A stretch of DNA of 64,000 nucleotides from Euglena gracilis. Its lineage: Eukaryota. The translations under genes were made by a program, and so were the position numbers. The stretch lies in NCBI GenBank assembly GCA_039621445.1, contig CP154954.1, forward strand, positions 5,743,919 through 5,807,918. The letters are read 5' to 3'. The notes under the pieces were generated by a model. It made no database searches. It was not told the DNA's origin and saw only the letters and a program-made list of their open reading frames with translations. This document shows positions 35,976-61,035 of the stretch, one piece after another (position 1 is the first letter of the stretch; each line of letters opens with the position of its first letter).

Positions 35976-36339
35976 TAGGGCCAAAAAGTGACAAGTTGGC
36001 CTATTATTACGGCATGCGCGCTGTGTGCTGTGTGTCACTTAGCAGCTTGCCAGGTTTCCCGGCTGCCAAGGTCTTCACAGCAGTAGCTCCTTCACGACGC
36101 AATAAGAGGCGATTACCTCTTGCAGACGGTTTCCGTCCGGATGGGGGGGGGCTCGTGGCGGGGGGGGGGGGGGGGGGTTTTGGATGCTTCCATCCAGAGC
36201 GTAGCGTGACACAGACCCAGGTTCATCCCAGGGCTGTTCAGCGATTTCCGCTACCAATGTATATATATGTATAGTATATGGATGTCCAGGCTCCATGAAG
36301 GCACTTACCTTACATGAGCCTGGTAATGCCGTTTTGGCA

Positions 36340-37360
36340 TTACATCCGTTCCAGCCGCCAATAATCATGGCGGGAGTCCAAGGGATCTTCCACAAGGACC
36401 ATCTGGAATTGAGGTGGTGGTGGCCTATCTACGAGCCAGGTTTCTGGCGATTCGTATTCGAAATCAGGTGCCACCCAGTCCCGAACCCATCCTTCGGGGA
36501 CTGTGTGCTTGGTTGCACTCGCTCTTTCTGCGAGGAACCATTGCAGCTTCTCCCAGAATTTCCTGGGCAGAGTTGCTGGCCCGATGAAGTAGTTCATCCT
36601 TGGGTGATTGGCTGACACCTGCGGGGCATTCCCTGGGTGGAAGTCAATCGGCATGTGATACGCACATTCTGCGCGGACTGTATGGGGTCGTAATACGGCC
36701 CCAAGCCAGTCTTTCCAGGTCATCCCGTGGTTTTCGGGTGGCCATTGTGGCAGGCACCAGCGACCGTTTCGGTCCTGGTTTTGGAACAGGCGGAAAAGTA
36801 TCTTTTCCCTGTCTGCTGTCTCCCAGAGGTAAGGTAATCTTACCCCTGCCTCCTCAGCAGCGAGGCGTATCGCCCCACTGTCGATCTGCCACCCACGGGC
36901 CATTCCCGTGTGGCGGTAGTCGTCGAGCTTGAGGTTGGCATACTTGAAAAAGTCCTTGAACTTTTTGTTCAAGGTGGAGTATTCCTCCAGTGGCTTCTCG
37001 GCACTTGGCACGATTGTGCGTACTGCGCCTTCCGCAGTGTGCCAGAAGGTACCTCGAAGGCAGTTGACGCAGAGAACTGGTACATTCGTACCGTCTCGGT
37101 CTGTGTAGCTGAAATTGTGCTTGTGGGTCCAACTGTCCACGCACTTGGCGCATACCAAGGCGGCACAGTTAGGGATGTATACATCCTTGTGGAACGATTT
37201 CCGATCCACAGGGTTGCACACATGGACGAGGGGTAATCCCAGGTCAAGTGCACTGTTGTACATCTTGTGGCATACAGTGCAAAGCCACACAAAACGGTTT
37301 TCCGTTGTTTTGTCGATGAGGAATTCCTCACCGAAGAATTGGGCCAAAACACGGGGAGAT
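36340..37360 (-). CDS. accessory protein, exon 2 (Cys/His cross-brace-like finger and Trp-rich domain)
   Basis: Open ~340-codon frame with no initiator ATG, preceded by TTCCAG. Intact in both A copies and conserved in B. Confidence 0.8.
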
Positions 37361-37478
37361 CTGGAATTCTAATAATTACAGGTCACATTCTGACCATTTC
37401 CGTCCCTGACAGAACAGTGGCTCAATCCACCGGTTAAGGCATTGCTGTGTCCTCAATTTATGTGCGATCATCATGTAC
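37361..37478 (-). other. putative 118-bp GT-AG intron inside the retrotransposon
   Basis: AACAG|GTACAT ... TTCCAG|ATCT, both phase 2. The spliced product LKNRSPRVLAQ aligns with B, which lacks the segment. Confidence 0.7.
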
Positions 37479-40400
37479 CTGTTTTTCAGGTCATGAATGT
37501 CAGGGTCATCCTGATTGATCGCGTTCCAGTCGATGACAACTTCGTCTTCTGAAGGTGTCTCGGCTGTCGAGGCGCGGGATTTTCCCAGCCCCTTTGACGG
37601 AGGTTTCGGCTGTGAGGTTTTCCCATAGCCGGATGACGTGACGTGCGTGAATCCTTGTCCCGAGGTTAATCCCCGAGAAGAGGATGCAGCACTCTGGCCG
37701 CCAGCACCACCACCGCCTTTCGGTGGGGGCTGATCACCAGATTTCGGTGTGGGTTTGCAAGGTGCGGCGCCCGGCTTACTTTTCGCCGGGGCCTTCGGGC
37801 TTCCGGCTTCCGGAGTCTCCGAGGGCCGCCGCTCGGCGTCTCGCTTGCTTGCCCACGTGCGTGGTGACGCTTGGGACGGGGGTCTTTTCCCCGACGCCGA
37901 ACGTCGTTGACCTTCAGCAGGGGTTTCCCGAGCTGATGGTCGTCCTACACGCTCCTTCGCGGCTCCCGAAGGTTTCCCAGGGGTAGCCGTGGGGGATGGT
38001 GTTGGTGTAGGCCTAGCCTGTGCACTTCGCGCTGGCTGAGCCTGTGGTGCAGGCATGGACGCCCGCTCGGCCTGTTTTTCAGGCGCCGGTGTCCGTGTGC
38101 CTTGACGCTTCTCTGGCGTGACTGTGGCTGTACCATGAGATACGGGTTCATCCCGTGCCTCCGGTGGTACCGCCGGTGTCGATACAGGTTCATCCTGTAC
38201 TGACACGGCTGGTGTTGTCTCCACAGTCATTGCCATCTGTTCGCCTTCCGTCCGTGTCGCTTCCGACACTGGCGGTGGCGCTGCCGTTGGGGAAGGTTCA
38301 TCCTCCACCATGGCTGCAATGTCAGATGTGTCTTCCGTCAGCTGGGCAGTTTCCGCCGCAGCTGTGGAAGAACTGGCCGCAGTGCCACGTGGAGTGACTA
38401 CTGCGATCAGTGACCGTAAACCACCGAGTACGCGTCCGCCCAGTGAGGTGCGTCTCTCCTCACCTGAAGTGGGCTCCTCGGCTGGCTCCTCGGTTAACGG
38501 GGTTTCCCCGGAAACAGGGAGCTTGAGGCGTAATACCTCGGGCGTGTGGGGTACCGTTTCCGGCGGGTTTTCCCGCGGAGGGGTTGGTACACCCGCTGTA
38601 CCCAGTGAGGCTGGTGATAGAGGGACAGGTGTCATTTCACCTGCTTGTGATCCTGGGTGTTGGGCGGTTTCTGCCACAGTATCCAGCATCACTACCGATG
38701 GGCTACGGGTTTCCCGTGCCGGAGGTTCCGTTGGCTGAGGTTCATCCTCAGCCATTGGGACCTCCTCCTCCTCCTCATCCGCTTCCGGAGAGGATTCGGC
38801 TGCGTGTAGCTGTGCTGCAGAACGCGGGTCTTTCCTGCTCCTGTAGCACCCTTGTGCGTTTGACAGGCGGAAAAAGCTAATACTTTCACTCCTGTCAGAG
38901 TTGGGGTATGGGGGCGGCCACGTCGCTCTCACCCAGCTTTCGGGTGGAGGCTGTGGTTGATCATCGTCGATCAAGCAAAGGTCTTCCCACTGCCGTCGAC
39001 AATGGTCAGTCACGCCAAACTCTCCTGTTTCTTCCAGGAATGCTGGCAGTGGCAACGCGTAACGAGGGACTTCCCCTTCGTGCGCCGCGAAAAACATCTG
39101 AAAATCCTCCCATATCAGGATATTCCCGAATTGGGTATCCAGGTGTTCCTGGAGACCGATTTCGGCCTCTTCCCAGTCTGGTCGCAGGTTCATCCTGCGC
39201 TGGTCTGGGTCATTGGGTCTGGCGTTCACCTCCATATATCCCCGAGGCAACCACTTTCTGTGGATTTCCACATCGGCGGTCATATATTCCAGGAAATATA
39301 TGTAGACCTCCAGGACGTAGGTAATCCACGCCCTGTGCCAGTACTGCTGCAGCAGAAATATTTTCTGCCGGTGCTGTTTCAGCACCTTTCGGTCTTGCGT
39401 TCCAATCTGGGGATTCCGGCACTGATGCAGGAGGCTGGCTGCCGGCATTCTTGGCAGACGGAGGCGGTTTTCCGCGTTCTCCGAAACCCCAGAAGTCAAC
39501 GATGTGGACTTCCTTGCAAAACTGGCATTCCAGTTTGTACCGCTGGGGGTATGCGAGGTCCACGTCCAGTACCTTGAACAGCATGCCATACATGCTGTCC
39601 AGGAAGACTTGGAGGTTGTTCGTGAACATTACCGCAGCCTGTGCCTGGAGTTTCTCCGGCAGGGGGTAATACTTCCACTGGATTCCCAGTGCGCTGACTG
39701 AAAACATGTGGTTGAAGATTTCCTTCAACTGTGCGACGAACGTTTCGCCGTCTTCACAGGTATTCAGGCAATCGATATACGTCAGACCGTTTCGGTCGGT
39801 AAAAATGCCGAAATTCTGGCAGGGGTATCCCAACCAGAACCACAGTTCCCAGAAACCAGGCATCTGGTCCAGGCCAACTTCATGCGAATGAGGGTATCCC
39901 TCGAACGCATGAAGTTCGGCACTGTAGAAAAAACGTTTGCAGTGATCGTTCATACGATTCTGCACCACTTCGAGCACCGCATCCGGTGGTCGGTGGATCA
40001 CGTTGCCTGCCCTTGTGAACTTTTGGAGATCCTCGTCGATTTTCGGCCAGATCTCCTCCAGGTACTTGAACACTGAGGCAACGTCATAATCCTTCGTTTT
40101 CGAAGGTTCGGCGGCTTTCCCGCCCTTGCTTGCTGCGGGTCCGGCAGATTTTCCGCCTTTGCCTGGAGCTGGCCAGGCGGCTTTTCCGCCTTTGCCAGGT
40201 GGGGCTTTCCCACCTTTCTCTTGGCCTTTTCCTTTCTCCTTACCTTTGCCCTTTCCTTTACCCTTGCCCTTTGTGTTTGACAGCCATTCGAATGTCGCCC
40301 GGTATGGGTCAAAGTATTCCCAGTATTCTGGGTCTTCTGGCGTAAACACTGGGTAAGTCACGGATTCCGTGCTTGGCGTTCGAGCAAATTCCTGCTCAGC

Positions 40401-41762
40401 ATCACCACGATTCGAGTAAACCGGTGCGACTGGGGATGGTCGGGTTTCCCGACGTGCCCGTTCTGCCGTCACGTCGGGCGCTGGTGGAGCTTCCTCCTCA
40501 GCGTCGACGTGCATCGCCGCGGGCGGATTTTCCGACCTCGGCGAGCGGCGCTGTGGCTGCGGCGTCAGATTTTCCGGGCCGCGGTCACGCTTGCCGGCGG
40601 CAGAACTTGTGGGCCGTGCTAGAGGCGCTTCCGCCACAGCAACGTCCTGCTGTCGCGCTGGTTGCCTTGATCGTGATGGAGCTGGGACTCCTGTGAGAGC
40701 CGACACAGCAGCATCATACTGCTGGCGCTCTTCCCGTGTCATTTCCGCCCGGGCAGGGTATCCCTGGCCAGCGGAAACAGGGGGGCGACGTGCGATTTGT
40801 CGTTGGATCGTCACAGCATATTCGTACTGTTGACGCTCCTCCTCAGTCTCAAACGGCCGGCCAGTCCACGGGTTAACGGGTTCATCCCGTACCGGGGGAA
40901 CTGGTGCCGCACGAGGCGCTGCCGCGGCTTCCCGCGGACGAGCGCTTCGGGCAGAGTCAGACGTCGGGGGAGGATTTCCCTCCGCAGGACGTCGTGGGAT
41001 AGGGTCAGGTATGGTTGGGTGGGGTTGAGGTGGATATACGTACTGATCCCGTGGCCTTGGCGCCTCCTGGGGATAATCCCCAGAGACGGTGTACTGAGAC
41101 ACAGGCTCCTGTGCAGGATAATCCCGCCGGGGCATGCGCTCAGGGGATCGAAAAATACTTTCTTTCACACGTGGGTGTTCACTCCGGACAGGTGCTTCCA
41201 CTGTCTCTTCCTCGGGTAATCCGGGGGAGTGAGCACGAAAATGTGCCGTGTAAGTGCCAACTGGCGGTATCTGCCGTGCTACCTGTGGCGGGACTTCCAC
41301 GCCCAGGTCACGCATGGTAATGTCCGCCGCGAATCCTGACGTGTCCGGGCCGGTGTAATACACCAGACCGGTCATCGTCGCCTGGGCGCACATACACCAC
41401 AGGGCTGGAGGGGTATTCGCGATGGTCAAAACTTTACGGCAGTGGTCATCCCACAATGCCTGTGTCAGTTGGTCTGGTGCCGGGTTTGCGCTCATAGGCA
41501 TAACCCGGTTCATCGTCTCCGCCGTGCGGTGGATCATCACACCCGCATACGGTGGGAGGCGACGAGAGCCTGATGGCTGAGATGGCCGCGCTTCCGCGGG
41601 CATCTGGGTCATCCTGCTACTGCTGCTGGCTTCAGGGTTTCCCTGAGCCGCAGTCCGTGTAGGTGGCTGCGTACCGTATCGGTACGCATACTGGTCAGGT
41701 TGAGGGTGCGTGGTGGGGTGGTAAGGCGGTCCTCCGCCTGGCTCCCTTCCACCGGGCAGCAT
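37479..41762 (-). CDS. accessory protein, exon 1 (Pro/Arg-rich linkers, KG repeat, two conserved globular blocks); one 14-bp deletion frameshift at ~39433
   Basis: ORFs 39210..41762 and 37376..39589 fuse when the 14 nt present in copy 2 (~58537-58550) are restored. Confidence 0.8.
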
Positions 41763-41847
41763 GATACAGCCCGGGGTCGGTACGGTGGGATGTTTGGGTT
41801 GTTGGTTGTAGTAAGGGTAACCGCTTGAGTATTATTTGCTAAAAAGT

Positions 41848-41900
41848 CTGCGGAAAGAAAGAATGATAAGAATCAATGATAAAAAGAAAAGAAAACAACA
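41848..41900 (-). promoter_or_regulatory. polypyrimidine tract + CGCAG splice acceptor ahead of the accessory ORF
   Basis: TTCTTTCTTTCCGCAG|ACTTTT. Equivalents: TTTCTCTATCTTTCTCGCAG|AGTTTT in B (53271) and the same site in copy 2 (60965). Confidence 0.7.
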
Positions 41901-41918
41901 TGGGTTTCCCATGAGTTC

Positions 41919-44900
41919 TCAAAAACTTGTCATGGAAACATCAATGTTATGTTTCTTGTTCCACAGCTTCCAATCTTGCTGGACATACCCAACAAAACTG
42001 GTTGCTGGCTCCCAAGTGTCCTCCTCGGGCCCATACCCTCTCCAGCGGACCTTCCAAAGGTGCATACCTTTGTCGATTTTGTGATCGATAATTTTATCGA
42101 CTACAAAGTCGTCCGTCTCAGGTAATCTGGAACGGGGTTTGAAGTGCAAACACGGGATGGGTTTCCCATCCGGTGGCGACAGGTATGGTTTGAAGTCGTC
42201 TATATGAACGTCCTCGACACCATTCGGTAATGCAACCTTGTAACGCCCGCTGGTACCTAGTCTTTCTAGGATTTCACAGGGGCCGAGCCAGAGGGGGTCC
42301 AGCTTGGAAGACTGCATGCGAGTGCGGCTATTCCGCACCCACACGCGGTCACCGGGACTATACACAGGTGACTTGAAATTCTGCAAAAACGATTTCCGTT
42401 TGGTTGCATGAATATCAGTCACGCACTTCTGGACTGCAGAACGTAGATTTTCTACTTCCGCAAACCAGGTCTCGCAACTGACACTCGTTCGGGCGGGTCT
42501 CTCCGAAGGGACATCCCCTATGGCCGGAGGGTCCCGTCCGAAAACTAATTTTTAAGGGGAGTGAGGTAAAACCAACCCTGGTAGGGTATTGATATAAAAC
42601 AAAGACCATGGTAGAACTGATATCCAGTTGCTGCGCGAGTCAGCCAGTGAAAGGCGAAGCATATTCACAACGGATTTCACGGCTGCCTCGGCTCTACCAT
42701 TGCCTTTGGGTCGGTATATAATGGAAAAATGTTGCTCGATTCCGAGTAAACCGCACAAAGTGGTGAAAAACCTTGAAGAAATCAAATGGTCTTGATCACT
42801 CACGATTTCATTCGGTAAACCCATTAAGCAAATGCATTTCTCCAAAAATATAGTTGCCAAACTTTGGGCAGTCAACCCTGACTTCTGCCATGGAATGGCT
42901 ACAATGTACCCACTCAGCCTGCAGACGACAACAAAAACGTAATCGTAAATTCTGTCGTCCGTTCCTTTGCACGGTTCTAATTCCAGAAAATCCATGCAGA
43001 GGGATGTAAAAATGTCAGGGGGTACGGGGAAAAAGTCCATCGTACCAGGGGGGGTACCTCTGCGGGGTTTTACCGCTTGACAAATTTGACACCGTTGCGC
43101 TATTCGCAAACAGCGTGAGTAAAGCTCTTTCTCGCTCAGGGTTGTGCAATATCTGCGGCCGTTGTGCAATATCTCCCACCAACGAAAGAAGTTTGGGGGC
43201 CCCAGGGTGACCATGGTTGTGATAACACAAAATCACATCATCAACCAGGTCCTGGGGAATACCATATTTGTAACCCGATTCATTGCGAAAAATGACCGGA
43301 CGTGCTTCCACGTCGGCGCCTTCCGCGCACTGGTGCGATCAGGAATAGTTGTGAAACGGGAAAAGAATCCAAAAGATTATCCGCAGCGTCGTTTCGACGT
43401 GCGTATTCGTCAGCTTCCTGACTTCCATGAAAAGTCGCGTCTCCCTCATCCGGGTTCCCAGGGTAATACCAAGGGGCCCGACTGAGCGGATCCGCTACTT
43501 TTTGTGTGTGACCAGGGGTATAAATAACCACAAGTTTGAATTGACTCAAGAACTCATGCCATCTGCATCGCCTTCCGACCGATGACATGGCCTTGTTCAA
43601 ATCCTCGGTGTACCAGTGTTGGAGACTCTCATGGTCGGTCTTGACGAGGATCTGGACGAGGCTGCTGGCTACCCAGCTTCGGAATTTCTGGAGTATAAGC
43701 ACGATTGCGTAGGTTTCCTTCTCGCGTATACTCCATTTGACTTGACCTTTTCCAGCGTCGCCCTGTAACTTTCTGCTGAAGAAAGCCACAGGTCGGAGCT
43801 CATTCGCCGCATTATGCTGGCTAAGAACTCCGCCAACAGCGTAATCGCTGCTGTCGACTTCCAACACGTATGGTTTGTACGGGTCCGCGATTTCGAGGAC
43901 AACATTCTCCAAAAGCAAAACCTTGATTTTCTCAAGGGCCTCACGCATTTGGTCATCCCAAATGACTTTGATGTTGTCAACAGCCCGGTTTTTGAGCTGT
44001 TTGGTGAGGGGCACCGCGATTTTCGCGAAGTCCTTCATATAAATCGCGTAGTATTGGGCTAATCCCAAAAATCCTTTGAGGTGAGTAATCGTTTTGATTA
44101 CCTCAGGGGTCCATTTCTTAATGGCTTCAAGTTTACTCGGAGCGGCTTTCCGCTGTCCATTGCTAAGGATGTGACCGCAAAATTTTATAAGTAGCCGAAA
44201 CAAATGCAGTTTCGCGCCTTTCGCGAAAAGCACATGTTTTTGAAAAGCGGTTAATACCGCGCAAACATGGTGGAAGTGTGTGACGAGGATATCCTCGCTC
44301 GATTTTGCGGATGGTGGTGGTGTTCCCACCAGCACATCATCAATGTACACAATGGCAAACGGTAAATCGCGTAGAACCCATTGTATCATGCGCTGAAACA
44401 TGGCTGGGCCATTCTTAACACCCATGGGGAGTACCGTCCATTGGTACACACCCTTGGATGTCACGAATGCCGTGTATGGTTGGGAGACAGGGTGTAAGTG
44501 CATTTGGTGAAAACCGTCCTCCAGATCGAAAATTGACCACAACCGGTTTTCCGATTGTTTGGTGATCAAATCCTCGATCAGGGGGAGCGGGAAGGGATCA
44601 TCCCTTGTTTGGGAGTTCAGGTACCGGTAATCCAGCACCAGCCTCCATTTCTTCTGACCTGAGGGGTCTGGGGGTTTAGGAACAACGAATGCCTGGGATG
44701 TCCACTCGCTTTTCGAGGGTACAATCCACTTGCGCTGAATAAGCTTCTCAATCATTTCATTGAGAGCTTGTTCGCGTTCTCCCGAACAACGAAAAAATTT
44801 CCGGTGCATTGGCTTGGCTCCATCCTTAAGCTCGATCTTACAAACACCGAACGGACCGCGTATCGCGGGGTCGATGTCGCACGCGTATACTGGATTTTCC

Positions 44901-46887
44901 AGCACACCGTGAAATTCGCGGGTAATCCGCGAACAGAATTCGGCTGACTTAGGATGCTGACCTGCACTCTCGATGACTGCGGAAACCGCCAGGGTATCCC
45001 TGGGGCTACCGAGCTTCCTCGGCACCGCGAATTCGGACATTCCGAATGCATCGAAGAAACATACGCGAAAAATGATTTCTTGCAAGGGTGGTAATATTTT
45101 GCCACAAAAATCCTCAAAAATAGGCACATTAGTGGGTAAATCCCACCAATGAAAACATACATACGATAGTTGGGTGAACCATTCCGCTTCCGGAATGATG
45201 GGTATGAGAATAACTCCACGGGCTTCATCCCGCAGAATTTTCTCAACCGCACATTCGATAAGTTTTGGGGGATGGTGCATCCATAACACCGTGTCACCCC
45301 AAAATTTATCAAATGCGTTGGAGTGTTGTGACCAATGACGTGGCAAACGGGCATGTGCATTGGATGAAAACACATCGATTTCCAATGCCAAATCAAAAGA
45401 ATCAGCCAATGTCGCGATTTTGGAAAACCATCGTTCCAAAATGCGATATTGACCAAAATTGAAAGCATTCCATACGCGTTTCGCGTATTCGTGCACCCGA
45501 TTTCCGGGTTGGAGAGAAGAAACACAATGAATGGATCCACAAACATGCGGGTTGTCTTCCACTACCTCAAGGGGTAATCCCAAGGGAGTTTGGACAGGTT
45601 GGGGATTTCCCCATTCCGCATCAAATTTATACCAAGTGTACTTGGGATGGTGGTTAGGCATGACGCTTTTCGCGTTTCCGAACAACGAGGTTATTCCGCG
45701 TTGTTGGAGTACTCGGTGTATCTCCGCGCATTGCGGGTTACAACCAAGTGTATCCTGGGGTGTGGATTCCGTATTCGGAATTGCGATTAGTGTCGGATTT
45801 TCAACTAAACATCCACAATCGAAATCCGATTGGGTGGAAATTCTCCTGCAGTGCACACATTGGAAGGAAGTGTGTTGGTGTGACAGGTGTGCGTGTAAGT
45901 GGGTGTCGATGGCATTAGCCGGTGAGTCTTGTACAGGTGTGCCTGGATTCGGCACAACTGGTAGGAAACGGAGTGGTGGTGTAGCTGGGCGACTACTCGA
46001 CACCGATATATCTTCAGGCCTTTGGGCTTTCGTCTTGTAACCCAGTGAAACGGCGGGGGTACCGCTACTCGCTTGCCCTGCCTCATGTGGAACGCATGTT
46101 GGTGTGTCATTGGGCAGGGGGGAGGCTTTCTCCGTACCCCGGGTGTGGAAAACGGTTGTTGGTGTGGTGGATAACGGTGTTGCCATTGTAGGTAACGGTG
46201 TTGGAAAAGTGGTGGTCATCATGGCTGATGCCAACGGTGATGGTGGTTTGGGTGTCAATGAAGTGGTGGGTGCTGTGCGCAGACCGTGGGAGTGGCAATC
46301 CACAACCAATCGGTACTGGCGTAAAAATAGGTATCCCAAAATTACATCAGACCCGTGAATTCCGGACTCGTAACCCAAATATTGGTGAAATGTTGTAATT
46401 GTGGGGGTTGTGAGTGATGCTTCGGAATGATGGGCAAGAGTATCTCGAGCACACATCCCAAATCACCACCACACATGGGGGTGTTATCCGCGGTTGTAAT
46501 TTTGATCAGTTTCTTGGCGCTTACCAAGAGCGTGGTCGGTATCAACCCCAACCGAAAGAGCAGTGCAATGCGACAACCAGTGTCAATGAGAATTTTAACT
46601 TTAGTGGAGAAATTTTGGACGCGGATTTCCGCTTGGACGAGCAATTCCATTGGTGGTACGCAAAGTGAAGGGTCTGGCGGAAATACGTTTACACGCCAGC
46701 TCTCCCATGAACCCTTTCCTACTTTGCTCAGCATTCCGAGCGGAAATGTGGAGTGGGGGGTACGGGACCCGAAATAATTCCGGGTACTGACCGTGAAGGC
46801 GGATGGGCAGGGGGGGTAAGGTTGATCAGGTCTTACCTCCATCTGTTCATCAGCCCAGAGGTCCGTGCCCTCGGACCTCGGGCTCCC
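41919..46887 (-). pseudogene. pol: pol of copy A1: protease, MTase-like domain, RT, RNaseH, integrase, chromodomain
   Basis: Motifs ILIDTG, LDYRYLN, FDLEDGFHQ, YIDDVL, VDSSD, TDHESL, H..GHPG..CQIC, MDF..SDQ..GRAE, GPCEI, WKVRWRGYGPEEDTWEP. Lesions: frameshift ~46420, ~150-bp deletion ~43292, short duplication ~43160, stop at 42552. Confidence 0.92.
45050..45400 (-). other. DNA N6-adenine methyltransferase-like (Dam/DIRS-type) domain within pol
   Basis: EIDVFSSNAHARLPRHWS...NAFDKFWGDTVLWMHHPPKLIECAVEKILRDEARGVILIP...EWF follows the DIRS MT pattern (DxF..N..LPxxxS..DAF..W....xPP..LI....K........LI.P.....WF). Confidence 0.72.
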
Positions 46888-46890
46888 CTA
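46852..46890 (-). promoter_or_regulatory. putative stop-codon readthrough signal (UAG-GGG + hairpin)
   Basis: TAG GGG AGCCC-GAGGTCCG-AGGGCA-CGGACCTC-T-GGGCT; gag and protease are in the same frame. Confidence 0.7.
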
Positions 46891-49220
46891 CTCCAAGTCC
46901 GAACCGGCCGCATAGCCGGCAACGGACTTTTTGGTGGAATAGCTGGAATTCAATGAGCGCACCGCCATTCGGGCCTCATTAAATTCCCCGTCCGAGGTCT
47001 CATCCCCCTCCCTGCCCGAAGCCGGGGTGTCCTCCTCCAAACAAGATATCTTGAAACCGACCTTTTGCCGGTTGGAGGAGTAACCACGGTCATCGCGGCG
47101 CTTACCGCGATTTCCGTAGCCGGGCCGGGGGGAACGAGATCCGGGACATTTGGATGCGTGGTGATCTTTGGAACCGCAAAGTGAACAACGGGATTTGTGG
47201 CGGGATTCTGCATAACGGGGGGAACGGTATTCCGTTCGACCGTCAAACCGTCGTTGTGTACGGGTTTCCCGTCGACCATGACCGGTGTACCGGGGTTTCC
47301 CCGGTGACTCCCGCGAAGAGGATGATCCACTTCGCGAACGAGATCGTGAATAGTCGCGATTGAAATCCCGTTTTCGGGTAGGGGGTCCAGGTGACCGACC
47401 GCGAGAAGGACGGGTTTCCCGACCATCACGCGATGGTGACTTGGGCCTGCTACCGCTAAAGCGTTTCTCCGAAGAACGTGAAACTCCTGATTGACGTGAG
47501 GAGGTCGAGCCCCTTGGGCTTCCAATACGCTTTCGCGCATCGGGATTCGGACATTCCCGAGACATGTGACCAGATTTGTTGCACAAAAAGCACCGTTTAT
47601 CCGTGCCCTGGTCCGAAGAACGCTGATTCCGCGTTTTCGGTCCCGTGGTGGGTGATCTTGGTGACTTGGGTGATTTGTACAACGCATTAACCGCACCCGC
47701 AGGGATTCCCGCGGTGGGATGCGTTTGGAAAGCGGACTGTATTTGTCCCAAAACTTGTGTGAGTTTGAGTTGCTTTGACACATAATTCCAACGTTGGGCA
47801 AGAGTCATCTCATGCCCTGCCAACTCCTCGCGATGGATATCCTTCACGAGGGATGGTGTGAAATGCAACAAAACCACATCTAATTGTTCGCGCATTTGCT
47901 TCTCGCTAAGTTCATCAACTTCGGCAGCAAGTGCTAACCATTTGGCATACCAAAGGTCAATGGATTTCCATTTGCGATCCGATGGCGCGGATTGTCGCCA
48001 CTTCTTCTCCACGGTAATCCTGGTGACCAAGCTTGAGTTGGTTGAAGCGTATTGCTCAACCAGGTCATCGAATGATACGCCATTACGTATCACCAAATTA
48101 CGTGCGCGTTCTCGCTCTTCCCTCGGTAGGCAATCGATGAATTCCATCTTGACTACCTCGGGATTCGGGTCTTGGGTGGGTCCCTTTAGTGCCCAGTGAT
48201 ACTCCCAGTCCCGAAAAAATTGTCTTCATGTGGTTGGATCCCCGTCCCATTGGGGTTTCACCTTGTTCGCGATTGCGATGGTGCCCTTGAAGTCTCTCTG
48301 AGTAACCCGCTGACCCTCGGTGGTATTCCAGGGGTTTGGGTCAGGGTGATTCTTTACACCAAACGCGTTTCGCGGATTTTCCGCTCCATGTGTACCCCGT
48401 GCAGGATTTCACGCACCAAGTGTAGGTGTGGCAGGATTTTCCTGCGGGAAGTGCAAAAAATGTGGTGAATTTCTCCCGGTGGGGCGGGTTTCCCGCCGAA
48501 AACCCGATGGGTGATCTGGTAATCCAGAACCCGTTGGTGATTGGTATGATCACGAATGCGACACATGACCAATACCAGGTGTGGGGTGTTGGCTCATTCC
48601 TCGTACAAGGTTGGAATGTTGAATTTCTTGGTGGAGACTCGAATTTGCGAGCGGGGCGTCAATTTCCTCATCGGAAATGTTGAGCGAAAGGTGGGTTTGT
48701 GGTGTGGGCAAAAGCAAAGGTGGTACAATTCGCGTTTTAGCGGGTGGTTGTACCAAATTCGCGGTGGATGTAGGGATTCCTACTCCAGAAATGGTAATTT
48801 GAGAACGCGATTCTGGGACATTTGGAATACCAACCGCAGCGCTTACCGCGGTGGATGGTGGCACAACCGGTGCCGGAGTGGACATTTTATCCAAACTCGC
48901 GGACAAGTCATGCACCGTTTCTTCCAAATGTTCCACCAACTGGAGTTGGCCGCAAATACGGTCAACCTCAGTCTCCAAATGTCTAATGCGTTTGCGGTAA
49001 CGGGAAAAATAGTCCAAGTGTGGTAACTTTTCAGAAACCAAGTGTAGGTCTTGGACAAGTTGTCTCTGGGACTCCTCCACATTCCGGAGTTGACCCGCAA
49101 GCGCTTTTACTGCATTTGAGACAATTTGCAATTGGTGGGGTGACTTGGTGGGGGTTTCCGCGGTGGTGCGCGAATTTTCCGCGGTTGGCTTTTCCAACAG
49201 CGCAGAATAAGGAGCCGATG
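46888..49220 (-). pseudogene. gag: gag (coiled-coil N-terminus disrupted; open 46888-48147)
   Basis: Two CCHC knuckles (CFLCNKSGHMSREC, CSLCGSKDHHASKC) separated by an RS-rich tract; heptad-like segment at ~48890-49135. Confidence 0.8.
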
Positions 49221-52200
49221 GTGCCGGAGTAGACGCTTGCCGTCTGGGCGAAGCGGGCATACTGACCGCTGGGTCACGCATGACGCTCGCAGGGGTCGGC
49301 AATCGTTCCGGGGGTTGTTCAGACGGCCGTCGCCGAGCAGGTTCATCCTGTCCGACGAGGCGTGGCACTGTGGTCGTCACCGGAAGCGGTGCTTCCACAG
49401 GTGCTGGCACTCCCAGAAACTCTGCCATTGTCTTCGGGATGGCAGGGACCCTGCGCGGTGTCAGTGGTCGTGGGGGTATCTCCTCCACTTCCATTTCGAC
49501 ATCCGGTCAATGAGGTTGATCCTCCACAACCGCTGGCGCAGGTGCTACGGGAGGTTGATCCTCCGATGTAGCCGGTGCGACAGATGGCCCTGTCGGCTGG
49601 GGTTCATCCCCTGATGGTGGTTGCTCTGCTGTCGGAGATGGGGGTGAGGGAACGCCGACATCCGGCGTCTCCACGACCTCAGCGGCGGAGCTTGATGCTA
49701 CGCCTCCACCTCGTGGCGTTAGTGCAGCAGCCACGGCAGTAATGCCGGTGACTACGGCGCCGAGCACACGGCCTCCTAACTAGGTGCGTGCTGTGGGACT
49801 GGCAGGTTCTTCGAGGATATCCTCGACGACCATACCAGTCACCTCGGCTGGAGGCTCAGCCGTTGGAACAGGCGTAGCAGCCACAGGTATATCCCCTGCG
49901 GGTGCTCCGTCTGGTCTAGGCTGTGCCGGAGCAGGCAGAGCAGGGTAGAGGATATCCTCCACGTTCTCACCTTCCTCCTCAGGAAGTTCCTAGTCTCCAC
50001 CTACCGGTGGACAGACGCAAGCCGCCGCGGGAGCCGGGGAAACCGATCGTTCCCCTGCCGCTCGCGGGGCAGAGACGAAGGATACAGCCGTTCCTGTCGG
50101 AGACGGCGGCGCTGCCTCTAGAATGGTGACGGAGGGGCTGCGGTCGCGTTCCTCCCGCCGCGGAATCGCGGTGGTGGAAGCGACTGACGCCTCACGTCTC
50201 CTTGGCGCCAGAGGTTCATCCTCCGGGGCGATGAAGGCGCGCAGATCCTCGGGCGAACGAGGATCGTCGGGGTTCCATCGGCATCCCTGGGCATCCGCCA
50301 GCCTGTAAAAGGCCAGCGTACTGCTGCTGGCGCTGTTGGGCCAGGGTGGCGGCCATGATGGCTGCACCCAGGCGTTGGCAGGCCTGTTCGGGCCCATGAA
50401 GCCGCGGTAACGCGTGTCTTCTCAGACCTCGAAAAAGCCCTCCTCGAACTCCTGAACGCATGCCAGAATCGGCATACGCTGTTCGAGGATGGCCTGCGGG
50501 TGACACATCAGCGGAAGGAATACCTCCCGGTCGAGGGTACCGCCAAACTGTCGCCGCAAATGTTCCTCCATGCTGATATCAGCCATGTGCCAGTTGGGGC
50601 GCAGGTGGCCGAGAATCCGACGACGAGGACCCTCGATGGCGTCACCGTAATCCGGTGGCAGGCTTTCCATACCAGGCCTATCGTCCTGGGGGTCACGGAG
50701 ATGTATATACACCTCCATGACATAGGTGGTCCAGGCTCGCCACCAGAACTGCTGCAGCATAAAAATACGCTGCTTGTGGACGCGGCGACTTTTGCCCTGG
50801 ACATCCGGGGCGTCGCGGCACACATGCATAGGCATGCGGCGTCCCATCTCCAGGCCCGGGTTATCCCGAGGCGGTGGAGGACTTCCGCGCACGCCGAATC
50901 CCCAGAAGTCGACAGGAAATTCCTGCCGGCAGTACTTACAGCAGAGGTCATACCTCTGCGGGTAAGCCAGGGAAACGCGCTTAACGCGGAAGGTGGAGCC
51001 GTAATGGCTCACCAGCCACACCTGGAGGTTGTTGCACCACAACACCTCGATCAGGCGTTCGATGTCGGGGTGTAGTGAGTAGAATTCCCACTACACGCCG
51101 AGGGGTCCGACTGTATGAATACAGTCGAAGATTGCCTTCAGCCTTCGGGCCAACACACGCTGGTCCCGAAATCTCAACTGGTGCAGGTAACTGCGACCAG
51201 TGGAGTCGCCGAAGAGACCCCAGTTCTGGCAGGGGTATCCCAGCCAAAACCAGAGCTCCCAGAAACCTGGCTGGGTTTCCAGCAAGGGTCTGCCACCTTC
51301 ACCTTCGAAGGCGTACAGATCTATCCCGTAATGGAATGGTCTGACTCTGTTCTCGGTGTGGCGTAATACCACATCGATGACTGCTTGTGGAGGGGTGACG
51401 GGGCGGTTTCCTGCAACATGGTAATCATGCTGCATTCGCCAGCCTTCGTCCTCCAGCTCCTCCTTGAACCTGAGCATATGCTCAAAGTCCGAGAGGACTT
51501 CTGCTGGTTCCTCTTCCTCCTCACGTGCTGTTCCCTTACCTTTACCCTCACCCTTCCCTTTGCCGGCCACGCCTTTGCCTTCTCCCTTGCGTTTGCCCTC
51601 GGCCTTGCCTGTGTCCTTTCCCGTCTGGCGAATACCAGAGGGTCGGGCGCTCGGTGCCGCCGGAGTCGGTTCGGTTCCTTCCCATTCCATCTCTGGGGAG
51701 GGACCTGGCCGACCCGCTGCACGTCGCGGTGACGGCGTGGCTGGGCGTCGGCTAGGAGTCTGGCGTGGGCTTGGCTTCGACGCAGGTGGTCGCGGCTCCT
51801 TCCATACCGGAGGGATCGGCGGTGGCATGGTGGCAACAGGACGGCTCATCGCCACCTGTGCCTCTGCCGGTGGTCGTCCAGCCGGGGTGTCCTGGCTGGC
51901 TTCCACCTGCATCGCCACACCGCCTTCCGCGTCCCGTGGGCTGGGTCGCCTGGGCTGTGGGGTAAGGTTCTCCGTAGTCCTGTCGTGCTTCAGGGTGGCA
52001 GGTAATACTGCTCCACCTGCCGGGGGCTCACCGTGTAATACCGGGGTTGCCACCCGCAGCTGCGGCTGGTACGGATGGTATGGGGTGTATCCACGGCCCT
52101 GAAGGGCAGCCAGAGAGGAATAATACCTCGTCCGGTGCTCTTCAGACGCGAATACTGGCTCCTGCAGGAAGTGTCGAGCAAGCTCATCCTGCTCGGTTCC

Positions 52201-53171
52201 CGAAGGTGCCATGTGGTAGTAGGGAGTCTCCTGCCGACGGGGGATATCCCCAGTCTGGACAGGAGCTGCACTGGGCGGTCGGGCTGCCACACGGTGGGGA
52301 GGTTCATCCTCCACCACTATGGGCTCCGGCTGCAGCCGTGGCTCAACGCCAGGGACAGGGGCGACCGGTGATGCCTGTGGCATCCTGTGCATGAACATGT
52401 GTTGGACGTATGCCACAGGGGGCACGTCCGACTGTCCGGCTGGGAGCACGCGTGCGCCGCGCGGGTAATCCGCGTGCGTCGCGTACTGCGAGACAAAGTG
52501 CTCCGCTGGCGGCTCGCGCGGCGGCATTCGCTGCGGCGAGGGCGGGCGAGCAAAAATTTTCGTCATCCCAGGTGGGACATGCACAGCCTCACATACCGGT
52601 GGGGGCGTGTGCTCACGCATATGCACGGTGTGGGATCCCACCGGCGTCTGCGTTTGCAGCATGGGCGGCACATACACGCCCAGGTCCATCATTGTCTCGC
52701 CAGGCTCGAATCCGGAATCGGATGCCGACGAGAAATACCGTCTCCCCGTCATCAGGGCTTGACCACAGGGACACCACTGAGCCACCGGCGTGTTGGCTAC
52801 CACCAACAACTGAGCACAGTATGCATCCCAAAGGGCTTGCATAAAGGGCTCTGTTGGGGGGTGTGCGCACATACGCATCGCCCGCTCCAACGTCTCCGTA
52901 GTGCGGAAGATCATCTCTCCCGCATACGGGGGCAGGCGCGATCTGCGCTGCGCTGGTGGCTGAGGTGCCGGCTGCTGGACGGCAGATGGATCTGGTACCG
53001 CATATGCGGACCGGCTGCTGGTAGCTGCGGCGAATACCGGGTCTGAAACCCTCTCAGCATGTGGGCACCCGGAATCGGGGCCTCAGCATACTGAGGGTAC
53101 TGGGGGTATGGCGCGCCAGGAGGCTGCGGCCATGGTGGACCTGGTCCAGGTCCGCGCCCAGGCAGCAGGAT
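49221..53171 (-). pseudogene. element B accessory protein, N-terminal and central part
   Basis: QALWD..C..L..ANTP...WC.C.QA.MTG..Y, ENLTPQP.R, KG repeat, PGFWELWFWLGYPCQN, LAYPQRY.L.C..C, VDFWGFG and LRP.W are shared with A. Several stops. Confidence 0.85.
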
Positions 53172-53363: not shown

Positions 53364-55253
53364 TCAGAAAGTGTTTATGTTTATGCCTACGTGATTGCGC
53401 TTGTTCCACAGCTTCCAATCCTGCTGGATATCCAACAAAACTGGATGCTGGCTCCCAAGTGTCCTCCTCTGGCCCATACCCTTTCCAGCGAACTTTCCAG
53501 TAGTGCACACCCCTGTCGACCTTGTGGTCTATTATCTTATTGACCACAAAGTCGTCCGTTTCAGGTAATCTGGAACGGGGCTTGAAATACAGGCAGGGGA
53601 TAGCTTTTCCGTCTGGAGGGCTTAGGTACGGTTTGAAGTCGTCCATATGGACGTCCTCAATCCTGTTGGGCAAGGCAACTTTATATCGCCCGCTACTACC
53701 TAACCTCTCCAAAATTTCGCATGGGCCGAGCCAAAGAGGATCTAGCTTGGAAGATTGCATGCGGGTGCGGTTATTCCGTACCCACACGCGGTCACCTGGA
53801 CTATACACAGGTGTGTTGAAGTTCTGTAAAAACGATTTCGGTTTGTTGGAATGAATTTCTGTGATACGTGATTGGACTGCGGAGCGGAGTGATTCCACTT
53901 CTGCAAACCACGTTTCACAGCTGACGCTACTTCGGGCGGGTCTCTCCGAGGGGATATCCCCTATGGCCGGAGGGTCTCGTCCGAAAACAATTTTGTACGG
54001 TGAGTGTGGTAATACCAACCCTGGCAAGGTATTGATGTAAAATAAACACCAATGAAGAACGGATAACCAATTCTTACCCGAGTCAGCCAGTGAAAGGCGA
54101 AGCATATTGACAACGGATTTCACGGCTGCCTCGGCTCTACCATTGCCTTTCGGGCGGTATATAATGGAAAAATGGTGCTCAATGCCGAGTAAACCGCACA
54201 AAGTTGTGAAAAACCGCGAAGAGATCAAGTGACCTTGATCACTCACGATTTCGTTCGGTAAACCCATTAAGCAGATACATTTCTCCAGGAATATGGATGC
54301 CAAAATCTAGGCTGTCAACCCTGCTTTCCGGCATGGAATGGCTACAATGTACCCACTCAGCCGACAGACGACAACAAAAACGTAATCGTAAATTTTGCCA
54401 TCTGATCCTTTGCAAGGTTCAAGTTCGAGAAAATCCATGCAGAGGGACGTAAAAGTGTCTGGTGGTACGGGGAAAAAGTCCATCGTACCAGGGGGGGTAC
54501 GTCTGCGCGGTTTTACAGCCTGACAAATTTGGCACCGTTGCGAAATTCGCAAACAGCGCGAATATAATTCTTTTTCACTCAGGGTTGTGCCATATCTGCG
54601 ACCCACTAGTGAAAGAAGTTTGGGGGCCCCAGGGTGACCATGGTTGTGATAGCTCAAAATCACATCATCAACCAGGTCTTGGGGTATACAATATTTATAA
54701 ACAGAATTCCGTAAAATAAGCCGCAATGGTGATAGAGAGTAATTCTCTATGGATTCACCACTACGAAGTCTATTCACAATGGTACTATATATAGGGTCAC
54801 GCGAATAATCCCATTCACGGAAAAATAGGCGGGTAGGAGTTTCCGTACGCGTAATGCGACGGGGTCCGGCAGTGCGTCCGCGCCGGCGCCTTCCACGCAA
54901 TGGTGAAATGGCGATGCTGCGATATACCCGGGAAACGGGTAGTGAATCGAGCATGTTGTCCGCAGCGTCGGATCGACATGCGAACTGGTCAGCCTCATGG
55001 CTGCCATGAAAAGTCGCATCACCCTCATCCGGGTTCCCAGGATAATACCAGGGGGCTCGGCTGAGAGGTTCCGCAACTTTTTTTGTGTGACCTGGGGTAT
55101 AGATAACCAGCAGGTTAAACTGGCTCAAGAACTCATGCCATCGGCATCTTCTGCCAACTGATGACATGGCCTTGTTTAGGTCCTCAGTATACCAGTGTTG
55201 AAGGCTCTCATGATCCGTCAACACGAGTATCTGGACCAAGCTGCTGGCTATCC
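53364..55253 (-). pseudogene. pol: element B pol, 3' part (RNaseH end, integrase, chromodomain)
   Basis: Close homologue of A pol; in-frame stop at 54307 and a frameshift at ~53430. Confidence 0.9.
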
Positions 55254-55266
55254 NNNNNNNNNNNNN
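55254..55266. other. assembly gap
   Basis: 13 N next to a poly-G run. Confidence 1.
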
Positions 55267-55444
55267 GGGGGGGGGGGGGGGCGCTTGGATGCTTCCATCC
55301 AGAGCGTAGAGTGACACAGACCCAGGTTCATCCCAGGGCTGTTCAGCGATTTCCGCTACCAATGTATATATATGTATAGTATATGGATGTCCAGGCTCCA
55401 TGAAGGCACTTACCTTACATGAGCCTGGTAATGCCGTTTCGGCA

Positions 55445-58400
55445 TTACATCCGTTCCAGCCGCCAATAATCATGGCGGGAGTCCAAGGGATCTTCCACAA
55501 GGACCATCTGGAATTGTGGTGGTGGTGGCCTATCTACGAGCCAGGTTTCTGGCGATTCGTATTCGAAATCAGGTGCCACCCAGTCCCGAACCCATCCTTC
55601 GGGGACTGTGTGCTTGGTTGCACTCGCTCTTTCTGCGAGGAACCATTGCAGCTTCTCCCAGAATTTCCTGGGCAGAGTTGCTGGCCAGATGAAGTAGTTC
55701 ATCCTTGGGTGGTTGGCTGACACCTGCGGGGCATTCCCCGGGTGAAAGTCAATTGGCATGTGATATGCGCATTCCGCGCGGACTGTATGGGGTCGTAATA
55801 CGGCCCCAAGCCAGTCTTTCCAGGTCATCCCGTGGTTTTCGGGTGGCCATTGTGGCAGGCACCAGCGACCGTTTCGGTCCTGGTTTTGGAACAGGCGGAA
55901 AAGTATCTTTTCCCTGTCTGCTGTCTCCCAGAGGTAAGGTAATCTTACCCCTGCCTCCTCAGCAGCGAGGCGTATCGCCCCACTGTCGATCTGCCACCCA
56001 CGGGCCATTCCCGTGTGGCGGTAGTCGTCGAGCTTGAGGTTGGCATACTTGAAAAAGTCCTTGAACTTTTTGTTCAAGGTGGAGTATTCCTCCAGTGGCT
56101 TCTCGGCACTTGGCACGATTGTGCGTACTGCGCCTTCCGCAGTGTGCCAGAAGGTACCTCGAAGGCAGTTGACGCAGAGAACTGGTACATTCGTACCGTC
56201 TCGGTCTGTGTAGCTGAAATTGTGCTTGTGGGTCCAACTGTCCACGCACTTGGCGCATACCAAGGCGGCACAGTTAGGGATGTATACATCCTTGTGGAAC
56301 GATTTCCGATCCACAGGGTTGCACACATGGACGAGGGGTAATCCCAGGTCAAGTGCACTGTTGTACATCTTGTGGCATACAGTGCAAAGCCACACAAAAC
56401 GGTTTTCCGTTGTTTTGTCGATGAGGAATTCCTCACCGAAGAATTGGGCCAAAACACGGGGAGATCTGGAATTCTAATAATTACAGGTCACATTCTGACC
56501 ATTTCCGTCCCTGACAGAACAGTGGCTCAATCCACCGGTTAAGGCATTGCTGTGTCCTCAATTTATGTGCGATCATCATGTACCTGTTTTTCAGGTCATG
56601 AATGTCAGGGTCATCCTGATTGATCGCGTTCCAGTCGATGACAACTTCGTCTTCTGAAGGTGTCTCGGCTGTCGAGGCGCGGGATTTTCCCAGCCCCTTT
56701 GACGGAGGTTTCGGCTGTGAGGTTTTCCCATAGCCGGATGACGTGACGTGCGTGAATCCTTGTCCCGAGGTTAATCCCCGAGAAGAGGATGCAGCACTCT
56801 GGCCGCCAGCACCACCACCGCCTTTCGGTGGGGGCTGATCACCAGATTTCGGTGTGGGTTTGCAAGGTGCGGCGCCCGGCTTACTTTTCGCCGGGGCCTT
56901 CGGGCTTCCGGCTTCCGGAGTCTCCGAGGGCCGCCGCTCAGCGTCTCGCTTGCTTGCCCACGTGCGTGGTGACGCTTGGGACGGGGGTCTTTTCCCCGAC
57001 GCCGAACGTCGTTGACCTTCAGCAGGGGTTTCCCGAGCTGATGGTCGTCCTACACGCTCCTTCGCGGCTCCCGAAGGTTTCCCAGGGGTAGCCGTGGGGG
57101 ATGGTGTTGGTGTAGGCCTAGCCTGTGCACTTCGCGCTGGCTGAGCCTGTGGTGGAGGCATGGACGCCCGCTCGGCCTGTTTTTCAGGCGCCGGTGTCCG
57201 TGTGCCTTGACGCTTCTCTGCCGTGACTGTGGCTGTACCATGAGATACGGGTTCATCCCGTGCCTCCGGTGGTACCGCCGGTGTCGATACAGGTTCATCC
57301 TGTACTGACACGGCTGGTGTTGTCTCCACAGTCATTGCCATCTGTTCGCCTTCCGTCCGTGTCGCTTCCGACACTGGCGGTGGCGCTGCCGTTGGGGAAG
57401 GTTCATCCTCCACCATGGCTGCAATGTCAGATGTGTCTTCCGTCAGCTGGGCAGTTTCCGCCGCAGCTGTGGAAGAACTGGCCGCAGTGCCACGTGGAGT
57501 GACTACTGCGATCAGTGACCGTAAACCACCGAGTACGCGTCCGCCCAGTGAGGTGCGTCTCTCCTCACCTGAAGTGGGCTCCTCGGCTGGCTCCTCGGTT
57601 AACGGGGTTTCCCCGGAAACAGGGAGCTTGAGGCGTAATACCTCAGGCGTGTGGGTACCGTTTCCGGCGGGTTTTCCCGCGGAGGGGTTGGTACACCCGC
57701 TGTACCCAGTGAGGCTGGTGATAGAGGGACAGGTGTCATTTCACCTGCTTGTGATCCTGGGTGTTGGGCGGTTTCTGCCACAGTATCCAGCATCACTACC
57801 GATGGGCTACGGGTTTCCCGTGCCGGAGGTTCCGTTGGCTGAGGTTCATCCTCAGGCATTAATACCTCCTCCTCCTCCTCATCCGCTTCCGGAGAGGATT
57901 CGGCTGCGTGTAGCTGTGCTGCAGAACGCGGGTCTTTCCTGCTCCTGTAGCACCCTTGTGCGTTTGACAGGCGGAAAAAGCTAATACTTTCACTCCTGTC
58001 AGAGTTGGGGTATGGGGGCGGCCACGTCGCTCTCACCCAGCTTTCGGGTGGAGGCTGTGGTTGATCATCGTCGATCAAGCAAAGGTCTTCCCACTGCCGT
58101 CGACAATGGTCAGTCACGCCAAACTCACCTGTTTCTTCCAGGAATGCTGGCAGTGGCCACGCGTAACGAGGGACTTCCCCTTCGTGCGCCGCGAAAAACA
58201 TCTCAAAATCCTCCCATATCAGGATATTCCCGAATTGGGTATCCAGGTGTTCCTGGAGACCGATTTCGGCCTCTTCCCAGTCTGGTCGCAGGTTCATTCT
58301 GCGCTGGTCTGGGTCATTGGGTCTGGCGTTCACCTCCATATATCCCCGAGGCAACCACTTTCTGTGGATTTCCACATCGGCGGTCATATATTCCAGGAAA

Positions 58401-60879: not shown

Positions 60880-61035
60880 GATACAGCCCGGGGTCGGTAC
60901 GGTGGGATGTTTGGGTTGTTGGTTGTAGTAAGGGTAACGGCTTGAGTATTATTTGCTAAAAAGTCTGCGGAAAGAAAGAATGATAAGAATCAATGATAAA
61001 AAGAAAAGAAAACACCATGGGTTCCCCATGAGTTC

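Follow-up and report, generated by a model that had tools for sequence, protein, structure and literature searches.

The 64,000-nucleotide stretch of Euglena gracilis DNA analysed here (hereafter the window; contig CP154954.1 of assembly GCA_039621445.1, positions 5,743,919 to 5,807,918) carries on its minus strand a Ty3/Gypsy chromovirus with the organisation gag, protease (PR), a linker with a four-cysteine (Cys4) motif, a Dam-like domain, reverse transcriptase (RT), RNase H, integrase (IN) and chromodomain. The Dam-like domain, the subject of this study, had been placed by an initial annotation of the sequence between the protease and the RT of a Gypsy-type pol, and the order of the Pfam matches together with BLASTP matches of the protease bears out this location; the order is common to relatives. 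The pol open reading frame (ORF; 43283-46462, minus strand, 1060 codons, stop codon 43280-43282) has a translation that includes EIDVFSSNAHARLPRHWSQHSNAFDKFWGDTVLWMHHPPKLIECAVEKILRDEARGVILIPIIPEAEWF, in which the whole motif series described in that annotation is found: E-I-D-V-F-S-S, R-L-P-R-H-W-S, N-A-F, W...L-W-M-H-H-P-P-K-L-I, E-K-I, I-L-I-P and W-F. On sequence and fold evidence, the domain comprises about 160 residues (45038-45508, minus strand); these limits are those of the confidently folded part of the model presented below, and a family hidden Markov model (HMM) places them at about 45023-45502. The interval first proposed, 45050-45400, covers the core of this domain, the whole being wider. 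Within it, the E-I-D-V-F-S-S motif (45362-45382, minus strand) aligns to the E-x-D of phage Dam, its D and F being conserved at 96-97% in the family, and a degenerate motif IV, encoded by the codons cac cat ccc cca (45266-45277, minus strand), reads H-H-P-P in place of the family N-P-P-F. The domain lies in frame with the RT, as claimed, since the RVT_1 match (pol residues 595-765; 44168-44680, minus strand; Pfam E 1.5e-24), with its YIDD at 44336-44347, is located in the same ORF.

The match of the pol ORF itself to the Pfam Dam family (PF05869) covers residues 352-431 with an E value of 0.027 and 14.6 bits, and the isolated window piece reaches 17.9 bits (E 0.0026), both below the family's gathering cut-off of 28.1 bits. 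The 204-residue window piece (P0001) was compared with 1.84 billion representative proteins by phmmer, which returned 241 homologues at a cut-off of E<=1e-3; 80 of these also pass E<=1e-10, and 8 pass E<=1e-30. Pfam Dam was matched at E<=0.01 by 20 of the 21 long homologues (10 of the 21 scoring above the gathering cut-off) and by 44 of the 57 rows of an alignment, A1, composed of the window piece and 56 short homologues. At E<=0.001, it was matched by 94 of the best 150 homologues, among which Pfam detected neither a competing methyltransferase family nor Phage_integrase. Through one homologue, P0151, tblastn led to annotated phage N-6-adenine methyltransferases in 14 phage records (E 9e-6 to 1e-4). 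When the A1 profile, in which the window sequence is one of 57 rows here as in the fold prediction, was aligned with three annotated phage N-6-adenine methyltransferases using hhalign, a probability of 98.9% was obtained (E 1.3e-17, 116 columns), the alignment spanning template positions 35-155 of 172. Searches of PDB sequences with the domain, the family profile or the phage profile yielded nothing, or chance-level antibody and thioredoxin rows (E>=0.27), and a word-index protein search gave one match for the long ORF and none for the 204-residue piece at E<=1e-10. As judged from the phmmer counts and hhalign, the resemblance to Dam is far beyond chance.

The phage PF05869 methyltransferases, exemplified by those of Edwardsiella phage eiAU, Planktothrix phage PaV-LD and Aeromonas phage 4_4572, share with the window domain the core running from E-x-D through W-x-N-P-P-Y to E-K, L-V-P and W-F. 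By contrast, the window domain lacks their N-terminal W-x-T-P segment and the arginine of G-R-x-x-F, is embedded in a polyprotein, and carries HHPP where the phage enzymes carry NPPY.

The fold check suggested in the initial annotation was carried out with AlphaFold2, Foldseek and VIA-align, and a methyltransferase fold was matched. The AlphaFold2 model, built from the 57-row alignment, is an alpha/beta sandwich with a mean predicted local distance difference test score (pLDDT) of 84.8, a predicted template modelling score of 0.76 and 135 residues at pLDDT >=90. Foldseek against BFVD returned 19 matches at E<=1e-3, and most of the named ones, including the best (9.1e-9), are phage DNA N-6-adenine-methyltransferases, that of Edwardsiella phage eiAU among them. 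Against the PDB, the cap-specific adenosine N6-methyltransferase PCIF1 ranked first (E 4.4e-4), followed by KsgA and other class I S-adenosylmethionine (SAM) methyltransferases. A VIA-align comparison with 48,161 chains also placed PCIF1 at the top (Z 10.3, root-mean-square deviation 2.6 A, 127 residues), ahead of METTL5 (Z 8.7), KsgA (8.6), M.BseCI and T4 Dam (7.9 each), M.TaqI (7.5) and E. coli Dam (7.4). T4 Dam and E. coli Dam belong to a Pfam family other than PF05869. PCIF1/CAPAM (PDB 6irw, 6irx) is the closest solved structural neighbour of the model, but it shares only about 10% sequence identity with the window domain, is a far larger protein and acts on capped RNA, and we consider it a fold neighbour that gives no family assignment; 2 of the 57 family members weakly touch Pfam PCIF1_WW. 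The predicted structure is thus that of a class I SAM-methyltransferase Rossmann-type fold. Taken together, the Pfam family counts, the hhalign alignment to phage Dam, the fold search and a BLASTP match to the Dam segment of a metagenome locus (L001, described below) agree with the initial identification of a Dam/DIRS-type methyltransferase-like domain, and the stretch almost certainly encodes a phage-Dam-type (PF05869) domain with an N6-adenine-methyltransferase fold.

Motif IV of N6-adenine methyltransferases reads (D/N/S)-P-P-(Y/F/W), in agreement with the text of a preprint discussed below. The suspicion that the catalytic position is altered in the window was confirmed by aligning 92 domains, the window and the 91 core-covering homologues out of 151 stored: the family consensus around the tetrad is L-W-[I/M]-N-P-P-F, whereas the window reads H-H-P-P and departs from the motif IV rule. 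Asn occupies the first tetrad position in 63 domains, His in 17 (including the window) and Cys in 9, with Tyr, Phe and Ala found in one domain apiece. H-P-P-L is the tetrad of P0002, the nearest relative, and N-P-P-[I/L/V] that of the surrounding clade. Of the 13 sequences in this nearest clade (the window and P0002-P0013), 8 begin the tetrad with N, 4 with H and 1 with Y, and only 3 end it with an aromatic residue, which serves to stack against the target adenine. Across the tree, His is seen at the first position on five or more separate occasions, and one deep clade of 11 sequences retains it as H-P-P-[D/N/E/P] or a close variant. About nine sequences, forming a clade, carry C-P-P-F, and a separate group carries N-A-P-F. 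The Asn-to-His change is common to the window and P0002, and is therefore older than the window copy. Outside the tetrad the family pattern is largely kept, the window retaining 31 of the 39 positions with at least 60% consensus and 12 of the 13 with at least 85%; the sole loss among these 13 is the first Pro of motif IV, which is His in the window. The window copy, which has the fold but departs from motif IV, is not placed here in the N6-adenine methyltransferase enzyme class.

Absence of the domain from other family members would have spoken against it, and its presence was found in P0002 and in the long homologues. In P0002, the domain sits at the same place (74% identity over the region), with RT, RNase H and the integrase zinc finger downstream. 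Among the 21 long homologues, RVT_1 lies downstream of Dam in 8, a weak protease match lies upstream in 3, the order RT-RNaseH-Dam-IN occurs in 1, and a Copia-type RVT_2 lies downstream in 2. Compared with P0002, the window is 43-52% identical in the linkers and 67% in the Cys motif, rising to 70% in the Dam core, 84% in the RT and 91% in RNase H. Because the Dam core stands above the linkers and below the RT, the Dam-like domain is constrained, though less than the polymerase. Dam also occurs in the Copia-type pol of metagenome proteins, as rve-Dam-RVT_2 in P0126 and Dam-RVT_2 in P0151 (RVT_2 E 2e-65).

The copy under study is not alone in the window. By self-BLAST, the region 36162-44745 of this copy (copy A) is 98.6-99.1% identical to 55267-64000 (copy B), which carries RT, RNase H, IN and SH3 in a single open frame (61050-63998) and leaves the window about 300 nt short of its own Dam region. 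An older third piece (fragment C, 53400-55253) corresponds to the integrase-chromodomain part at about 83% identity. Copy A is without 150 bp at the RNase H/integrase junction that copy B has (62402-62550), and the corresponding break at the end of the pol frame (43233-43295, minus strand) is also seen as loose ends at 43292 in DNA runs and in the alignment with P0002. In addition, a stop codon at 42552-42554 splits the integrase core from the SH3 and chromodomain. Four runs, all available as contigs whose depth does not equal copy number, have another letter at 42552 in 97-100% of their depth, and the stop is private to copy A. The protease frame breaks near 46373, and a one-letter difference in length is seen there in roughly half of the depth of two DNA runs and in the only X15 contig that covers the site. 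In DNA run X1, from one organism, 53,570 contigs fall on 6.4 kb of the element, and contigs from a leaf-litter RNA library cover the domain (45177-45882), although contigs of the RNA libraries (X15, X20) do not prove transcription. We conclude that the window element is a damaged copy of a young family of very high copy number, a recently proliferating chromovirus family whose Pol polyprotein includes the Dam-fold domain as a fixed and conserved component.

Elements of this kind have already been described. A 2026 preprint (bioRxiv 10.64898/2026.05.21.726589; Fernandez-Moreno et al., May 2026) reports Gypsy elements with a DIRS-derived Dam, termed DAM-LTR retrotransposons after their long terminal repeats (LTRs). 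It counts 10,030 eukaryotic DAM proteins, mostly in one clade, and finds DAM in chromodomain and non-chromodomain LTR elements as 'the first identification' outside DIRS, with at least four inferred transfers from DIRS to Ty3/Gypsy-like elements and five DAM-LTR lineages (Chlorophyta, Chloro-Ochrophyta, Ichthyosporea, Pyropia and Euglena); Copia is not mentioned in its main text. Enrichment of DAM-LTR insertions in N6-methyladenine (6mA) is reported in three species, two ichthyosporeans and Euglena; such enrichment, in a host that encodes AMT1, would be expected of a member of the group. The authors propose that LTR elements borrowed Dam to write 6mA, imitating active host chromatin. With a Dam-like domain and RVT_1 in one ORF and rve and Chromo downstream, the window element is a DAM-LTR retrotransposon. 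Like those described, it is of Ty3/Gypsy type, a group in which some members have a chromodomain, and its pol carries a DIRS-derived, phage-like DAM, a compact alpha/beta domain to which just a portion of prokaryotic Dam can be aligned.

The window element is nevertheless a divergent variant, set apart by its altered tetrad, a conserved upstream Cys4 motif and its sequence divergence. The Asn-Pro-Pro triplet is conserved in almost all DAMs of the preprint, whereas the window has His-His-Pro and P0002 has His-Pro-Pro. The text does not state the position of DAM in the chromovirus clade, and the order PR-DAM-RT may or may not match. The preprint's DAM screen used hmmsearch at E<=1e-5 (Methods section 13), a threshold that the window (E 0.027/0.0026) fails, as do six of the seven nearest relatives scanned (P0002, P0005, P0006, P0008, P0010 and P0011; E 1.8e-5 to 4e-3). 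As only P0003 (E 5.4e-6) would pass, strict Pfam-threshold screens miss a whole divergent clade of Dam-bearing elements.

What the domain does has to be judged from its tetrad. Since this is altered (H-H-P-P for N-P-P-F), canonical adenine-methyltransferase catalysis in the window domain is doubtful. Translated with the RT, the domain would presumably be packaged with it into the particle, near the RNA template and the cDNA. It would no longer be a canonical adenine methyltransferase, its fold-defining residues being kept, and has most likely been retained as a binding or scaffold module for SAM and/or nucleic acid, like METTL14 beside METTL3. The inactive METTL3 partner METTL14 has a degenerate tetrad, EPPL, without the stacking aromatic, which resembles the HPPL of P0002 and the NPP[I/L/V] of its clade, and keeps the N6-adenine-methyltransferase fold for binding and scaffolding (PMC5023411); METTL14 belongs to the MT-A70 family, however, and its likeness to the window domain would be functional only. 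By this analogy, we lean slightly towards a non-catalytic binding or scaffold role, because the Asn, one Pro and the usually aromatic position are lost in the window while the scaffold is kept, and because the aromatic is scarce in the nearest clade. As a whole, a Dam-fold domain in the pol of a DAM-LTR chromovirus, acting as a non-catalytic binding or scaffold module, is the explanation that we find fairly probable.

Several observations weigh against this explanation. The window's own Pfam Dam score falls short of the gathering cut-off, and the argument for a non-catalytic role is one of motif logic throughout. His could still hydrogen-bond the adenine N6, and the persistence of clades with H-P-P-[D/N/E/P] and C-P-P-F could mean altered rather than lost chemistry. 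The second-position change from Pro to His occurs in 0 of the 91 other sequences and may be a private lesion of an otherwise damaged copy. H-H-P-P may not be the majority state of the family, the domain of copy B lying past the window end (base 64000); none of the 40 variant rows listed from read contigs, out of 384, falls inside 45050-45400, which at motif IV carries no evidential weight. Finally, in the preprint, expressing eukaryotic DAMs in E. coli did not raise 6mA even when they had N-P-P, and hence the motif may predict activity poorly either way.

Alternatively, the domain could be an adenine methyltransferase that is active despite its non-canonical motif IV, with His instead of Asn contacting N6, and could place 6mA on the element's cDNA or its new insertions, in line with what the preprint proposes for DAM-LTRs. 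Both the fold and the Asp conserved in D-x-F remain intact, and the recurrence of His on the tree, with its maintenance through a deep clade, looks like selection rather than decay; however, besides the Asn, the first Pro and the fourth tetrad residue (aromatic or aliphatic elsewhere) are gone from the window, and 10 of the 13 sequences of its clade lack the stacking aromatic. We know of no N6-adenine methyltransferase with His at the first position of motif IV. The 6mA enrichment reported on DAM-LTR insertions, including those of Euglena, would fit an active enzyme, but no eukaryotic DAM was active in the one heterologous test that the same preprint reports, and overall we regard activity as unlikely. 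A functionless relic carried along in pol, its odd tetrad reflecting decay in a dead copy, would be in keeping with the protease frame break, the 150-bp loss at the RNase H/integrase junction, the private stop before the chromodomain and a Pro-to-His change unique among 92 sequences. Yet a relic would hardly show a Dam core better conserved towards P0002 than its flanking linkers (70% versus 43-52%) or retain 12 of 13 highly conserved positions, the Asn-to-His change predates the window copy, and the domain occupies the same place in relatives down to about 30% identity; simple decay is accordingly improbable. That the Dam resemblance itself is a chance motif pattern in the protease-RT linker is refuted: the sub-threshold Pfam matches of the window and the PDB sequence searches without a meaningful match would suit such a coincidence, but not the hhalign probability, the Dam matches of 94 of the best 150 homologues, or a confident model that matches phage Dam structures and solved N6-adenine methyltransferases.

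If the binding or scaffold module that we favour is extended beyond this copy, retrotransposon-borne Dam domains might have been selected for something other than adenine methylation, as pseudo-enzymes forming a SAM- or nucleic-acid-binding module of the replication complex, perhaps one recognising 6mA or hybrids. This generalisation is tentative, and we hold it to be rather unlikely; it is prompted by the presence of His in 17 and Cys in 9 of the 92 domains, whole clades included, by the loss of the stacking aromatic from the nearest clade, and by a His-variant family that still reached very high copy number with near-identical copies. If true, it would explain the negative activity assays as well as the long-unknown role of the DIRS methyltransferase (MT) domain. 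An abundant, recently active chromovirus with a kept fold and a lost tetrad constitutes a natural test of the 6mA-writing proposal: binding of SAM or nucleic acid with no methylation would mean that the domain is selected for another function, and methylation would mean that the (D/N)PP(Y/F) rule is drawn too tightly.

The initial annotation had further supposed that the domain was captured by a Gypsy element and that DIRS elements are present in the same window. DIRS1-type elements have an MT domain of the same Pfam Dam family (PF05869), whose function is unknown there too (PMC3266345, PMC3783388), in the order RT-RH-MT, RH being RNase H. They differ in combining RT-RH-MT with a tyrosine recombinase, without protease or DDE integrase (PMC3783388), whereas the window element has PR-MT-RT-RH-IN-chromo. 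A DIRS1-type tyrosine recombinase retrotransposon was therefore rejected as the identity of the window element, given the presence of PR, rve and Chromo, an MT-like domain upstream of the RT and no Phage_integrase in the scanned ORFs. The RT-RH-MT order was found in metagenome locus L001, where a plus-strand ORF (1129-2514) matches the terminal part of RVT_1, followed by RVT_3, of RNase H type, and by Dam (E 1.9e-5). It was the one locus obtained when metagenome loci were scanned with a 7-row alignment (a single protein gave none), and the short contig on which it lies leaves no room for a recombinase to be seen. The window domain matches the Dam segment of L001 by BLASTP with E 9e-11 (33% over 79 residues). 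The L001 tetrad is F-P-P-F, and the catalytic Asn is thus not universal in elements of DIRS order either.

Within the window, one minus-strand ORF (684-3317) carries RVT_1 and a weak RNase_H, and is colinear with the L001 RT-RNaseH (E 4e-12, 23% over 250). It sits within direct repeats of 96% identity (1-869 and 5239-6530), overlapping the left one by about 190 bp, and the right one is interrupted at 5513-5923; the two homologues of this RT ORF carry only RVT_1. From its sequence, the region is compatible with a DIRS/Ngaro-like element. No tyrosine recombinase, integrase or Dam domain was detected at this region (1-6530), and Pfam scans of 74 ORFs of at least 130 codons, 8 further ORFs and 39 ORFs within 1-7487 gave no Phage_integrase or Dam match. 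Likewise, no second Dam-like domain was detected in the window, the best other tblastn match having E 0.04 and the best family HMM match E 2.1 among 1009 six-frame ORFs. The presence of DIRS elements in the window was therefore not confirmed beyond this single DIRS/Ngaro-like RT-RNaseH ORF. As neither a recombinase nor a Dam domain accompanies it or occurs elsewhere in the window, the window offers no donor of the Dam domain. Furthermore, since the PR-Dam-RT order is found in relatives that are only about 30-50% identical, the capture was neither local nor recent, and long predates the family.

Upstream of pol, the gag ORF (46891-48225, minus strand) encodes two CCHC zinc knuckles (47551-47592 and 47146-47187), one matched by Pfam zf-CCHC (E 2e-6) and the second recognised by pattern. 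It ends in an in-frame TAG (46888-46890), followed 3 nt on by a 13-bp hairpin, the two spanning 46852-46890 on the minus strand (hairpin 46852-46884). The 94 nt at 46800-46893 fold with dG -42.7 kcal/mol (z -3.13), a stability that 1 of 200 shuffled sequences reaches; the TAG and hairpin look like a signal rather than a defect, possibly for programmed read-through. The retropepsin-type protease (46268-46650, minus strand), identified by BLASTP to relatives, is broken in frame near 46373: its N-terminal half, with LIDTGC at 46573-46590, lies in ORF 46345-46887, and its C-terminal half, with VILGYLFL at 46322-46345, in the pol frame. The split protease ORF has no Pfam match. In P0010, P0011, P0006, P0005 and others, a single unbroken stretch on the N-terminal side of the Dam-like domain is matched by both halves (BLASTP E 1e-31 to 1e-6).

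About 100 residues upstream of the Dam-like domain, the Cys4 motif C-x2-C-x-R-x7-D-C-G-C (45809-45859, minus strand; pol residues 202-218) corresponds to the CxxC..CxC segment noted beforehand. In 8 aligned sequences of the nearest clade, none of its seven specified residues (C, C, R, D, C, G, C) varies, and the motif was found in 6 of the 29 homologues having at least 150 residues upstream of the domain, and also in P0004. It may be a zinc knuckle. Extra Cys pairs at 45716-45742 and 45524-45541 are common only to the window and P0002.

Downstream of the RT, all on the minus strand, lie a Ty3/Gypsy-type RNase H (43538-43960, residues 835-975; Pfam RT_RNaseH E 5.1e-23, RT_RNaseH_2 E 7.2e-24), the integrase core (42555-43232; rve E 2.8e-10, with Integrase_H2C2 also matched in copy B), and the integrase C-terminal SH3 and chromodomain (41922-42551, the chromodomain at 42000-42107; Chromo E 2.8e-11, SH3_Tf2-1 E 1.5e-7). 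The description of the whole as an LTR element is based on its pol domain order and chromodomain; no LTR pair bracketing it was found in direct repeats and self-BLAST over 28-56 kb, and all that tblastx showed was a weak colinear resemblance of 38.8-39.2 kb to 50.2-50.6 kb. The LTRs may be missing from the assembly, whose neighbourhood holds other copies and a 13-N gap (55254-55266) that adjoins a poly-G run between fragment C and copy B. No tRNA genes were detected within the 64-kb window. The interval 7000-36000 is a mosaic of diverged direct and inverted repeats, with pieces 70-95% identical and no Pfam family in ORFs of at least 130 codons. Directly 3' of the chromodomain lies an ORF of 873 codons (39213-41831, minus strand) with no Pfam family, which is 33% identical (E 2e-71) to ORF 51094-53082, itself downstream of the chromodomain of fragment C. 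Since it follows the integrase-chromodomain in two subfamilies, ORF 39213-41831 is probably part of the element. Its product is Pro-rich, with a Gly-Lys repeat and a conserved C-terminal part.

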